A DNA stretch of 64,000 nucleotides from Candidatus Eiseniibacteriota bacterium (lineage in GTDB: Bacteria > Eisenbacteria > RBG-16-71-46 > CAIMUX01 > VGJL01). The stretch covers positions 99,891-163,890 of the forward strand of contig JBHGAY010000008.1 of the NCBI GenBank assembly GCA_041946735.1, written 5' to 3'. A program made the position numbers. Every line of letters begins with the position of its first letter. Positions within the stretch are counted from its first letter, which is position 1. Positions 27,001 to 30,000 of the stretch are shown here, piece by piece.

Positions 27001-30000
27001 AGTTGCGCGGATCGACCGAAGCGTAGACGCGATGTTTGTTCATCGGGCCGAAGAGATGGTCGAGCAACGCGGTGACCGCCTCGGTCGCAAAGCCCCGGCG
27101 CTGATACGCCGGCGAGATGGTGAACCCGATCTCGACCTGGCATCGCTGGTCGGCCGGAAAGTGGACGCCGATGTCGCCGACGAGCGTTCCGGGACGAGCT
27201 GCCTCGAGAGGGCGGATCGCGATCTGAAACCAGGTTCCGGGCGTCGCGAACTCGACGACTGCGAGATCGCCGAGAAACGCGACGACCTCGTCGAGCGAAG
27301 CAGGCTCCCACGACTGGTAGCGGCATACCTCCGGGTCCGACCTGTACGCGAAGAGCGCGGGGGCGTCCTCGGCGTGGAACGAATCCAGGATCAATCGCCG
27401 GGTGCGAATGACCTGCGAGGGGAAGGCTCGGAAAGCGGCCATCGTGCTCCTCTAGGCGGCCATCATGCTCTCCTCACGCTCCGGGCCTCGAAGCCGAGAG
27501 GCGAACTGACAGGTGCCGTGCGATGGGGATGATACAGCCTCTCCCGAGTCGCGGCCGCGCGCCGGCGCAGGTTGCAGAAGGGCCGCGCCGGTCGAATGCC
27601 GTGCGCGGCTCCCCTGTTGGAGGCTCCGGGGGTCGTCCGGCGCTCCTGAATCGGGCTCGGTGCGAGATCCGGCCTCTTCCGATCCGGTCAGGGATCGACC
27701 TTCACGATCCTCGCGGTCGCCGTCTGGCCGGCCGTCGTCAGCCGGCAGAAGTAGACGCCGGCCGGCACGGACCGGCCTTCCTCGTCCTTGCCGTCCCAAA
27801 CGAGCGAGTGATCGCCCGCCCGCTGGGACCGCATCGTCAACGTTTGAATCATCCGGCCGCCCACGTCGTGAATCGCGAGCTCGACGGGCGTCTCGTCCAC
27901 GACCCGGTAGCGGATCACCGCCGAGGTGGAGATCGGATTCGGCTGGACGAGGACACGGGCCGCCAGCTCGCTGACGGGGGTCCCATCGTCCACGCCAGTC
28001 GGGTAGAGCCCATGCGGACCCGGTCCCCAAGGAGTGACGCCGTGGCAGACGGAGCAGGTGCGTAGCGTCCCGGCGTGGCCCTGCAACGCAACCGTCTGGC
28101 GGTTGTCACGCTCTTCGCGTGAAGGAAGGATCGCATGGGTGCTGTTGTGGCACGCCTCGCAGTAGAGACCGCCGTGACCGTTGTTCGAGAACCGGTAGAG
28201 AGTAGCGGGCTCCTCGGCATACGCGGGGCCATGGCAGTCGCCGCACCGCGGTTCCTCGAGCCAAGGCTCGCGTCCCAGTTCGTCGATCGAGTAGGCGACC
28301 TGCGCCACCGAGCCATGGCAGTCCTGGCAGACCATTCCGTGTTCCTGCGACATGACGTCCCGCAGGCATTGCGTGTGGGGGCCCGGGTGGCAGGTGTAGC
28401 AGTCGTTCGTGACCTCGCCGTGCTGCTCGTGCATGGCGAGCGAGAGGCTGGGAAGGTTGGGATTACCGGGCAAGCCCAGAGCGTTGCTCGCGTGGCAATC
28501 GGCGCACAACACCGGCCGTGAGTTGTAGAGCTGGGTGCCGTTCTCGTCGTCATGAAGCCTCAGGATCGCTTGCTCGACCGTCTCCCCCGGGTCCGGATGG
28601 TGACATTCTGAGCACAGCATCTCAGTGCTCACCGGAGCGACGATTTCGGTCGCCGCCAGAAGATGGTTCTCCGCGTCGTATGCGTCGATCTGCATGAGCT
28701 GAAACGGTTGCTCGTGCTGAAGGTCGGCGTCGTCCCATGGAGTGAGCGGGATTCCTGCGGCCTCGAAGTGATCGGTCGTCCAGTCGATCGTCCCGGTCAG
28801 CCCTCGTCCCGTCAGACCGATGTTCGCAGGGAGCGAAACCCCAAAGAGCTGATCCTCCCAGGACCAGAAGTCGGTCTTGCCGGCGGAGTAGGTGTTCGCG
28901 TCGAAGCGATAGGTGAGCCGGTAGCCGGGACCGCCCAGGACGACCGGGACATGGCTGGCGTCTCCGCGCTGGATCAGCGTGGCCCAGACGGTATTGAAGG
29001 GCGGGAGGACACAAAGGTCCGCGAAGTTCCTGTTCATGCAGTGCATCCCTAGATCGTTCCATCCGAGAACGATGTAGGGACCGAGGTCGGTTCGGTCGGA
29101 TGCACCGGCAGCGGGGGTGCAGATTCCGGCGAGCAAGAGCAACTGCGCGGCGAACCGGATCGACGACCGAAGAGAGGCGCAAGAGCGACGCGCCATCGTC
29201 TCCTCCAGGTTTCAGTGCCGTGGAAAGGCGGCGGCGCTTGCACGGCTTGCGCCGCCATTGCAGCATCTATCGTCAACCGGCGGTCGGCGGCGCTCGCGGG
29301 GAAAGAACGAGGGGCCCTCGATTGCGTCGTTGGCCCCCCTCCCTCGAACGTCCCTTTTGTCGGCGATGTCGACGATACAAACAAACAGCGCCCGATTCCC
29401 TTCGAAAATCGAGCGCACGCCGAGTTTTTGATTGCTCTCGTGTAATCCCGAGAAGCCGGTGCGGCGGCGTTACCTCAGAACGAGGCCGTTCCCCTGCGGT
29501 CTACCAACCGGCCCTCCCCGCGGCGTATCGCGAGAAGTGGGGGAGATCCACCCACAGCAGCATGGCACCTGCGTCGAAGGTGCCGTGAATGTCCACCCAT
29601 TCGTTCGCCTGTTCGTCGAGCCAGTAGATCGTGGCCCGCGTATGGGCGTTCGCGGTCGAACGCGTCAGGTCGATCGTCAACCTGACCGGCGTCTGGAAGA
29701 CGAGTCCATGGGGGAGAAGCTCGCACATCACGTACCCGCTCTCCTCGCGCGCGATGAGAGTGACAGGCATGTCACGAGGAAGAGCGCCCGGCGGAACCGT
29801 GAGTTGATAGCGCCCGACCTGCAGAGTTCCGCCGGCACCGGACTGGAAGTAGAGCGTCTGCGCCGGCGGGGAGGACTGCGGTCCCGGGACGTCAGGCTTC
29901 CCAGGCGCCCCGTTTCTGCCGTGGCCCTCGGCTGCCGGCGAGGGGTTGCCTGTCGATCCGAGGCGAATCAGCCCGTCGTCGGCAGCGGCGGTCGGATTCT

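Follow-up and report, generated by a model that had tools for sequence, protein, structure and literature searches.

Our analysis centered on a single gene (P0001; g03690) that occupies positions 27688..29196 on the minus strand of the window, the whole stretch of 64,000 nucleotides analysed here, and that its open reading frame, Pfam matches and homologues describe as a c-type cytochrome of 502 residues and seven haems that ends in a sorting domain. It lies on contig C71 of an uncultured soil bacterium, where the offset given earlier proved correct, and translates without stops; its length and its seven CxxCH motifs, starting at residues 195, 231, 266, 290, 318, 346 and 381, bear out a preliminary description of the locus. 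A GGAGGA ribosome-binding site can be read from the sequence 4 nt 5' of the ATG (29201..29206, minus strand). Between the cytochrome gene and an upstream lipoprotein gene, a consensus scan placed a terminator-like hairpin with a T-rich tail (29388..29416, minus strand), which weakly suggests that the cytochrome gene starts a transcription unit of its own, given that the scan yielded two sites against 1.0 expected. A sigma-54 promoter was considered as well and discarded: the pattern occurs 34 times in the window, where 36.6 occurrences are expected, and never before the gene on the right strand.

The protein opens with a putative Sec signal peptide (residues ~1–32; 29101..29196, this and the following segments on the minus strand), recognized by eye from an Arg-rich start, a hydrophobic LLLLAG core and an AGA/S site, as in type A cargo of type IX secretion (the T9SS). 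Homologue alignments begin only at about residue 38, and pLDDT falls below 50 at residues 26–34. An N-terminal beta-sandwich of Ig-like fold follows (residues 41–188; 28633..29076), delimited by AF2 strands and by invariant columns that include N47, L49, G50, M51, H52 and C53; its fold matches are generic Ig-like ones, the best at Z 4.9. The haem domain (residues 190–395; 28012..28629) holds the seven CxxCH motifs together with the invariant residues H215, H256, H259, H341, H354, H395 and C277. It is joined by a linker (residues 396–413; 27958..28011), flexible as judged by pLDDT (below 50 at residues 396–400, with ten-residue blocks across 391–410 averaging 52–56) and possibly the region of sortase cleavage, to the C-terminal sorting domain, or CTD (residues 414–502; 27691..27957), a beta-sandwich recognized by TIGR04183, FlgD_ig and Foldseek.

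Taken on its own, the haem core has the features of an electron carrier, and g03690 is almost certainly a real cytochrome that bears its own genome's sorting tag. Pfam Cytochrome_C7 (PF14522) matches at 38.2 bits against a cut-off of 24.8, placing the protein with multihaem c7/c3-like cytochromes. The seven haem sites are kept in every row of two alignments, of 61 and 66 sequences, with two qualifications: in the 61-row alignment the first Cys of site 4 falls just short of invariance, and the low-GC branch has CX4CH at sites 1 and 5. Seven histidines outside the motifs, namely H52 and the six of the haem domain, are invariant in both alignments, offering one possible distal ligand per haem and hence fitting an all-bis-His wire. 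This conservation, from which bis-His ligation of all seven haems would follow, suggests that the protein is a wire for electrons and not an enzyme. Sequence and profile searches of the PDB with the haem core returned nothing below E 0.5, Foldseek and VIA comparisons with solved structures gave no Z of 5 or above and no solved structure resembling the core, and no enzyme family matching g03690 was found in the sequence and profile searches.

What is the nature of the C-terminal domain? NCBIfam TIGR04183 covers residues 419–499 of 502 at 33.8 bits against a cut-off of 23, and it also matches the tail of a second cytochrome of this genome, g00203 (29.3 bits). Both hits had been claimed before and both exceed the cut-off, although the E values are weaker than the 5e-9 and 1e-7 first given, at 2.5e-8 for g03690 and 6e-7 for g00203. 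The best Pfam label is FlgD_ig, found as previously reported at residues 438–488 (42.6 bits, cut-off 27), whereas Por_Secre_tail (PF18962) scores 16.1 bits, under its cut-off of 27; the tails of several relatives match both models. Structurally, the domain superimposes in Foldseek on PorZ (5m11) with an rmsd of 3.4 over 92 columns and a probability of 1.00, and it shares 32% identity with the same genome's PorU tail (E 7e-15). A six-frame search of the genome with TIGR04183 gave at least 147 matches, 144 of them over the cut-off, with 150 of 205 candidates scored. A profile iterated on the genome placed the tail domain on 237 of 3361 crudely called proteins, and in 233 of the 237 it ends no more than five residues from the C-terminus. 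Placed in this way on carriers that are otherwise unrelated, the domain behaves as a sorting signal rather than a binding module, and the sequence evidence supports the tail of g03690 as a general sorting tag of this genome. Only two of the 237 tagged proteins, g03690 and g00203, combine it with CxxCH motifs. A reading of the tail as FlgD itself was rejected, as NF005176 reaches 39.2 bits against a cut-off of 230, only the Ig-like stretch 435–493 matches and the N-terminal FlgD domain is absent. A type B CTD was likewise set aside, with no TIGR04131 match at E ≤ 1 and just 11.9 bits for CHU_C.

Known type A CTD cargo includes the gingipain RgpB, PorZ and PorU of Porphyromonas gingivalis. Like these, g03690 has a Sec signal peptide and a beta-sandwich of about 90 residues at its extreme C-terminus; unlike them, it is a multihaem cytochrome, and its tail is the FlgD_ig-labelled variant. 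Our literature search found no paper linking the T9SS with multihaem cytochromes. A folded CTD acts as the export signal, and GFP–CTD fusions are handled by the T9SS, as set out in a review of the T9SS (PMC11611037).

The genome encodes a part of the corresponding machinery. The translocon SprA scores 493.9 bits (cut-off 200) and a full-length PorU sortase 595.3 bits (cut-off 420); PorV/PorQ-family barrels occur as several paralogues, with 188.8 bits against the family model's cut-off of 90; the best match to the PorV equivalog model reaches 123.8 bits against 250. Profile searches of this 94.8%-complete genome gave no match to GldL, GldM (two models), GldN or PorP, and only sulfatase-domain-level matches to GldK (79 bits, cut-off 350); PorZ yielded nothing beyond tail-level matches in the genome regions scanned. 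Among 50 other genomes the GldM model matched 18, each of Bacteroidota type, and it matched none of seven Eisenbacteria-like relatives searched. Because GldK, L, M and N and PorP were not found, the export system is a reduced or divergent one and not a canonical T9SS. The earlier view of g03690 as a T9SS-exported surface cytochrome therefore holds in part: the multihaem core, the Sec signal peptide, the general tag and the SprA, PorU and PorV-family genes agree with it, but GldKLMN and PorP are not found and PF18962 stays under its cut-off.

Relatives of g03690 number 3866 at E ≤ 1e-5, close to the 3862 earlier attributed to the stricter threshold of E ≤ 1e-8. As the preliminary description stated, the same haem core carries FlgD_ig, Por_Secre_tail, a dockerin or no tail at all, and some copies have a lipoprotein signal. 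Among the 119 homologues listed of 3866, with 7 fragments or variants set aside, that signal occurs in 10 of 15 tail-less forms against 0 of 97 tailed ones, and a quick tree places the lipoprotein clade among CTD clades. In other phyla, the Atlas shows the same core fold (TM 0.91–0.95) fused to a domain of the PKD, Big_9, cadherin-like or CarboxypepD_reg type. Such swapping of anchoring devices on one core is as expected for a module of the envelope or surface.

Tail and translocon were also compared across genomes. Among 50 core-holding genomes, SprA (E ≤ 1e-10) is present in 27 of the 28 with a CTD-tailed core, the one SprA-less genome having PorU and GldM; it is found in none of the 10 that belong to Chloroflexota, Planctomycetota, Sumerlaeota or to unplaced bacteria, whose copies are without a CTD. 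The first three of these groups are also those in which a genome scan retained tail-less core loci, and these loci are other than the ones given in the preliminary description for Geobacteraceae, Anaeromyxobacter, Nitrospirota and Acidobacteriota. The CTD is not obligatory for the core in SprA-positive cells, since such genomes hold all 11 dockerin-tailed copies and one tail-less copy (L013). Nor is the core intrinsically extracellular, as the tail-less copies of Planctomycetota extend at most about 14 residues past it and have N-termini that read by eye like membrane anchors. Within the phylum of this organism the protein family is patchy, being found in 25 of 121 genomes sampled and in neither of two others from the organism's own taxonomic family. 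Clustering of 1071 ORFs from 80 loci and the window, in which longest-ORF calling at high-GC loci is unreliable, revealed no widespread shared partner gene and no conserved neighbor tying the gene to an electron partner; the neighbors that recur, one family of sigma-54 regulators (10 loci) and one of histidine kinases (6 loci), are both generic. Sequencing runs containing this DNA come from soil, industrial-waste and landfill metagenomes, with no RNA runs listed.

How does g03690 relate to known extracellular cytochromes? In the Shewanella decahaem proteins MtrC, OmcA, MtrF and UndA, as in g03690, a beta domain precedes a multihaem domain, and a position outside the diderm cell is proposed here too. 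MtrC is the top Foldseek match of the haem core (E 8e-4), but the TM score is 0.13–0.15 and the VIA alignment is weak (Z 3.7, rmsd 4.1, 118 residues aligned); PF22113, which describes domains II/IV of MtrC/OmcA, scores 16 bits against a cut-off of 30. The MtrC type has ten haems and four domains, compared with seven haems and one beta domain in g03690. MtrC is a lipoprotein and leaves the cell by type II secretion; g03690 instead has a CTD and no lipobox. Porin–cytochrome conduits, such as MtrCAB of Shewanella and Pcc of Geobacter, share with g03690 the aim of linking periplasmic electrons to the cell exterior, but the tag of g03690 would move protein, not electrons, across the membrane. The export tag thus does not replace a conduit, because electrons still need to cross the outer membrane. 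Eighteen proteins of the genome have at least three CxxCH motifs, and two clusters (C72 and C23) resemble quinol-to-outer-membrane chains, one of them with a candidate large outer-membrane barrel. Given these candidate conduits elsewhere in the genome, the T9SS route would supplement conduits and not be separate from them, and the original suggestion of a distinct route is to be narrowed in this sense.

In conjunction, these analyses lead us to propose the following model. The protein would enter the periplasm via Sec, where its seven haems would be attached. The C-terminal beta-sandwich, a type-A-like sorting domain in its FlgD_ig-labelled variant, would then target it to SprA in the outer membrane, where it would be handled by a barrel of the PorV family and by the sortase PorU, and the cytochrome would end up attached to the surface or released. 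Outside, it may transfer electrons to acceptors or from donors that cannot enter the cell, for example metal oxides, humics or partner cells, with the electrons probably supplied by a separate trans-outer-membrane conduit or shuttle. Passage across the outer membrane by a T9SS-type route is, on the tag and the genes of the machinery, the likely part of this scheme; a role in extracellular electron transfer is a more tentative proposal, somewhat short of an even chance, and the whole path from Sec through haem loading and SprA/PorU export to extracellular electron transfer comes close to being an even call without quite reaching it. The sequence itself shows the haem sites, the signal peptide, the tail and its use throughout the genome, and the SprA, PorU and PorV-family genes; we infer the export of a folded haem protein, its cleavage, its anchoring and its redox role. 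More broadly, we speculate, tentatively and with rather more doubt than conviction, that members of the FCB group and their neighbors place haem-loaded multihaem cytochromes on the cell surface via SprA-based type IX export, which in Eisenbacteria would take a reduced SprA–PorU–PorV form without the known GldLM motor.

It is conceivable that g03690 is exported but acts as an extracellular redox enzyme or accessory protein, for example an assimilatory ferric reductase in iron uptake, a reductase of soluble compounds, or a redox buffer or detoxifier, rather than in respiratory electron transfer to minerals. The invariant N-terminal domain, which has no haem motif of its own and carries a conserved M-H-C triad, would suit such a function, as would its weak fold matches to the metal-binding proteins CrdA (Z 4.6, rmsd 2.4, 91 residues aligned) and P19 (Z 3.7), the solitary position of the gene without respiratory partners and its patchy occurrence in the phylum. 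Those fold matches, however, tie with many unrelated Ig-like domains, no enzyme family is matched by sequence, and with as many invariant histidines as haems, seven of each, none of the haem sites is obviously open, so that we consider this function unlikely, though worth keeping in mind. Export itself may also be doubted: in an organism without the T9SS motor, the tail could be a module of FlgD_ig type that serves structure or binding and is not a working export signal, and the cytochrome would stay in the periplasm. FlgD_ig as the top Pfam match with PF18962 under its cut-off, the failure to find GldK, L, M, N and PorP, and the tail-less copies in other phyla, some with anchor-like N-termini, all point this way. 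The reading is nevertheless improbable in our view, as the tail sits on 237 otherwise unrelated proteins, at the C-terminus in 233, PorU bears the same tail, SprA, PorU and PorV-family genes are retained, and both the missing FlgD N-terminal domain and the FlgD equivalog score of 39.2 bits against 230 speak against FlgD.

If g03690 is exported, it might still be released and carry electrons, in solution or bound to the matrix, from cells to acceptors at a distance or back, instead of being held at the surface as a terminal reductase. PorP was not found and PorZ gave only tail-level matches in the regions scanned, which would be in keeping with release; PorU is the sortase that attaches type A cargo, and its presence at full length argues for attachment. 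Sequence alone cannot separate the released from the anchored form, and we rate release as a rather remote prospect. The preferred reading, export out of the cell by a SprA-based route, can be put to a direct test, since Maribellus species are available in culture and Flavobacterium offers hosts that are genetically tractable.

The cycling of iron, manganese and humics, corrosion and bioelectrochemical systems are all driven by extracellular electron transfer, a process whose understanding is, to our knowledge, almost confined to Shewanella and Geobacter. If the proposal is correct, many bacteria of soil, sediment and waste treatment beyond these genera become candidates for the process, and uncultured Eisenbacteria, Bacteroidales, Kapabacteria, Calditrichota and Krumholzibacteria would gain an electron-transfer capacity missed by current gene catalogues. 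The T9SS would gain a new class of cargo with covalently bound cofactors, and diderm cells would have one more way of placing redox proteins outside, next to nanowire assembly and the type II secretion of lipoprotein cytochromes. For the secretion field, the Eisenbacteria pose a separate question, namely what drives export in cells that keep SprA and PorU along with over 200 tagged proteins and in which GldKLMN are not detectable.

The second tagged cytochrome, g00203 (C1:238977-241679), was found as first described, with 900 residues, six CxxCH motifs and the same tail, and it also has an Ig-like domain. Its residues 581–648 align to residues 278–344 of the pentahaem cytochrome c552 of Thermochromatium tepidum (5ZE8; E 1.2e-4); this short stretch is the only one that matches, and g00203 differs from 5ZE8 in its six CxxCH motifs, its Ig-like domain and its sorting tail.

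The heptahaem protein (g03690) is a real cytochrome that bears its organism's outer-membrane sorting tag. Its gene, on the minus strand at window positions 27688-29196, is an uninterrupted frame of 502 codons with a GC3 of 0.81, matching the adjoining genes, and a GGAGGA ribosome-binding site can be read from the sequence 4 bases 5' of the ATG. We read the N-terminus, Arg-rich, then hydrophobic and ending AGA/S, as a predicted Sec signal peptide. Its seven CxxCH motifs begin at residues 195, 231, 266, 290, 318, 346 and 381, and Pfam's Cytochrome_C7 model matches the protein at 38.2 bits (cut-off 24.8). 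The preliminary description of a multihaem cytochrome with a sorting tail is confirmed: NCBIfam TIGR04183 (type IX secretion system, T9SS, type A sorting domain) matches residues 419-499 at 33.8 bits (cut-off 23). A terminator-like hairpin (29388-29416) separates the cytochrome gene from the upstream gene, which codes for a lipoprotein of 215 aa and lacks conservation across related loci, and a GNAT acetyltransferase gene lies downstream, so that the cytochrome gene stands on its own. The 502-aa frame is consistent with full-length homologues. A 421-aa database entry (P0003), 99% identical to the cytochrome, takes its first 33 residues from a different reading frame of this DNA, entering the window's frame at residue 115; we take the difference to reflect an indel variant, or else a fault of assembly or gene calling elsewhere.

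Pfam's preferred label for the tail is FlgD_ig (42.6 bits), while Por_Secre_tail scores 16.1 bits, under its cut-off of 27. A hook-cap (FlgD) identity is ruled out, since the full FlgD model reaches 39 bits against a required 230. According to a review (PMC11611037), domain databases give some C-terminal sorting domains (CTDs) the FlgD_ig label, and the folded CTD, rather than its sequence, constitutes the signal. The AF2 model of the whole cytochrome (mean pLDDT 84.9) places a beta-sandwich at residues 414-499, preceded by a low-confidence linker, and Foldseek superposes this sandwich on the CTD of PorZ (5m11) with an rmsd of 3.4 over 92 columns (probability 1.00). BLASTP gave no alignment between the tail and that of a Bacteroidales homologue, so that the tie to classical CTDs is one of profile and fold only. 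TIGR04183 has at least 147 six-frame matches in the organism's own genome, 144 of them above cut-off (150 of 205 candidates scored), and an iterated profile places the domain on 237 of the 3361 proteins of a crude proteome (about 7%), ending within five residues of the C-terminus in 233 carriers. The cytochrome's tail is 32% identical to that of the genome's own PorU (E 7e-15). Judged by these sequence patterns, the domain is deployed in this genome the way a sorting signal would be.

Which export system would read this tag? The genome (4.89 Mb in 72 contigs, 94.8% complete) encodes the translocon SprA (493.9 bits, cut-off 200) and the sortase PorU (595.3 bits, cut-off 420), together with a PorV/PorQ-family barrel (188.8 bits, cut-off 90; 123.8 against a cut-off of 250 for the PorV equivalog) and a PorV2-like barrel near porU. 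GldL, GldM (TIGR03517 and Pfam GldM_1st), GldN and PorP were not found in this 94.8%-complete assembly, and GldK gave only sulfatase-domain-level matches (79 bits against 350). The GldM model is not blind, since it matched 18 of 50 other genomes, every one Bacteroidota-type; it matched none of seven Eisenbacteria-like, nine Ignavibacteria or Zixibacteria and six other CTD-bearing non-Bacteroidales genomes. Among the genomes searched, those of Eisenbacteria-like bacteria, Ignavibacteria, Zixibacteria, Kapabacteria and Krumholzibacteria likewise have SprA and PorU but no GldM. With SprA and PorU kept and GldKLMN and PorP not found, the organism's export system is, as far as gene content tells, a T9SS in reduced or divergent form. 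The proposal that the tailed cytochrome is exported by the T9SS, anchored at the surface and active in extracellular electron transfer is partly supported: tag, translocon and sortase are present, but no known T9SS motor could be detected. T9SS and CTD proteins are assigned to the FCB superphylum in a review (PMC12398890), and NCBI files Eiseniibacteriota among candidate phyla. The names of the nearest homologues, with their position in the core tree, suggest that the organism belongs to Eisenbacteria.

In the genomes of 50 of 80 loci carrying relatives of the core, SprA was found in 39. These comprise 27 of the 28 whose core copy bears a CTD-type tail (the exception, G043, has PorU and GldM), all 11 with dockerin or untyped tails, and that of a tail-less copy (L013); SprA was found in none of ten Chloroflexota, Planctomycetota, Sumerlaeota or unplaced genomes, whose copies have no CTD. 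This co-occurrence fits the tag hypothesis, but it largely mirrors phylogeny and so counts for little by itself as evidence. That dockerin-bearing and tail-less copies occur in genomes with SprA shows that a CTD is not obligatory for the core.

The core family is large, with 3866 homologues at E<=1e-5 in a word-indexed search and, when 1.84 billion representatives were searched exhaustively with a profile, 2134 clusters at E<=1e-3 (1392 at 1e-10, 597 at 1e-30); a genome scan placed relatives in at least 589 of the 600 matched stretches listed. Among the best 150 profile matches, the core lies at either terminus of proteins of 290-1254 aa. When 45 tails were typed by Pfam, six were FlgD_ig (Eisenbacteria, Krumholzibacteria), 23 Por_Secre_tail (Bacteroidales, Kapabacteria, Calditrichota and others), ten dockerin (Ignavibacteria, Zixibacteria, some Bacteroidales) and three DUF5666 (Chloroflexota), with three unmatched; Planctomycetota copies end about 14 residues past haem 7. 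In a quickly built 66-row tree of the core, one 45-row clade takes in all tailed forms (SH-aLRT 93), and within it a CTD was replaced by a dockerin at least twice. Of the forms whose tail is shorter than 40 aa, 10 of 15 have a PROSITE-like lipobox, against 0 of 97 with longer tails (119 listed homologues, seven fragments or variants set aside), and the lipoprotein forms make up an 11-row clade (support 99) in a polytomy with the CTD clades. In the ESM Atlas, the same core fold (TM 0.91-0.95) is joined in other phyla to PKD, Big_9, cadherin-like or CarboxypepD_reg domains. Taken together, the varied tails, the lipobox split and the Atlas fusions argue that a single electron-transfer core has been combined with each lineage's own anchoring or sorting device. 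Chloroflexota homologues (L041, L044, L051, L052, L060, L080, L081) each bear one of several additions: an acidic D-x-D-G-D-G-like motif in an N-terminal extension, a DUF5666 tail, or a YLPL..RR C-terminus, the last of which may be another lineage-specific sorting signal. Where a CTD would stand, the homologue at locus L073 ends in a hydrophobic helix and then basic residues, which looks like a C-terminal membrane anchor or sortase-type signal.

The core comprises a beta-sandwich (residues 41-188) and a haem-bearing part (residues 190-395). All seven haem sites are kept in alignments of 61 and 66 sequences, although in the former the initial Cys of site 4 is near-invariant, and a low-GC branch has CX4CH at sites 1 and 5. 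Seven further histidines (H52, H215, H256, H259, H341, H354, H395) are invariant, as are C53 and C277. By conservation, one spare invariant histidine per haem would fit seven bis-His haems, and hence a protein that works as an electron wire and not through a catalytic haem. The haem core is without a solved relative: sequence and profile searches of the PDB returned nothing under E 0.5, and VIA-align of the core against 48,161 chains gave no Z >=5. MtrC is the best Foldseek match of the core-only model (pLDDT 87.7, pTM 0.88) at E 8e-4, yet with a TM of 0.13-0.15, and aligns by VIA-align at Z 3.7 (rmsd 4.1, 118 residues). The N-terminal domain has generic Ig-like fold matches only, including CrdA (Z 4.6) and P19 (Z 3.7).

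The second tailed cytochrome, g00203 (C1:238977-241679; 900 aa, six CxxCH, an Ig-like domain), carries the same sorting tail (TIGR04183, 29.3 bits), and a stretch of it is related to cytochrome c552 (5ZE8, E 1.2e-4). Among the best 120 of its 2344 homologues, nearly all are 873-952 aa long (one 754-aa call comes from its own genome), most carry a FlgD_ig tail, and the named sources are Eisenbacteria almost throughout. Its family occurs in 57 of 121 phylum genomes sampled and the heptahaem family in 25, both counts including the organism's own genome; tagged multihaem cytochromes are thus recurrent in the phylum, and the heptahaem one is an accessory gene.

Read from its sequence, the heptahaem cytochrome would join two known kinds of protein, T9SS-type cargo and the cell-envelope multihaem cytochrome, and its proposed role is directly testable at the bench. 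The open literature, to which our search extended, held no paper joining T9SS or a C-terminal sorting domain with multihaem cytochromes, and papers naming both type IX secretion and a c-type cytochrome concern, by title and abstract, unrelated subjects. Secreted multihaem cytochromes have been predicted in Bacteroidota genomes of wastewater plants, with T9SS unmentioned in the portion of that source consulted (PMC11495043).

An export tag shifts the protein, not electrons. The genome encodes 18 proteins with at least three CxxCH. A cluster of multihaem genes at C23:78474-87994 (within locus L096, C23:78474-90722) encodes a fusion of an 11-haem protein to cytochrome b561, a pentahaem protein of NapC/NirT type, proteins with 13 and with 4 haems, and a 9-haem lipoprotein that bears a PKD domain. 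The gene after these codes for a BNR-repeat protein whose tail gives a weak match of FlgD_ig type (27.1 bits, cut-off 27). The cluster at C72:40569-51862 (locus L095), a candidate porin-cytochrome conduit, encodes cytochromes with 6, 25, 16 and 7 haems, a PPIase and a secreted protein of 711 aa with a C-terminal Phe. In the Atlas, the 711-aa protein comes closest to unnamed 700-aa clusters from Thermodesulfobacteriota and Acidobacteriota (TM 0.86-0.88), with an MtrB/PioB cluster next (TM 0.48). Both clusters are candidate quinol-to-outer-membrane chains and, we infer, could feed a surface cytochrome.

Several redox and regulatory genes share the window. A 668-aa histidine kinase, whose periplasmic sensor region has two CxxCH (at residues 117 and 154) and which also carries HAMP, PAS and HATPase domains, is followed by a sigma-54 response regulator at 21909-25279 (+), about 2.4 kb from the cytochrome gene; a similar regulator (family in 10 loci) or kinase (6 loci) lies no more than a few kb from the cytochrome elsewhere, both families being generic. 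Adjoining NrfD-like and 4Fe-4S dicluster genes at 17621-20372 (-), 7 kb from the cytochrome and separated from it by regulator genes and a short unannotated ORF, suggest a quinone-linked oxidoreductase module. A 1856-aa ORF at 40013-45583 (+) fuses 2Fe-2S, 4Fe-4S, pyridine-nucleotide-disulphide oxidoreductase and molybdopterin oxidoreductase domains, and [FeFe]-hydrogenase-like and DRTGG genes lie directly upstream of it, at 36343-38907.
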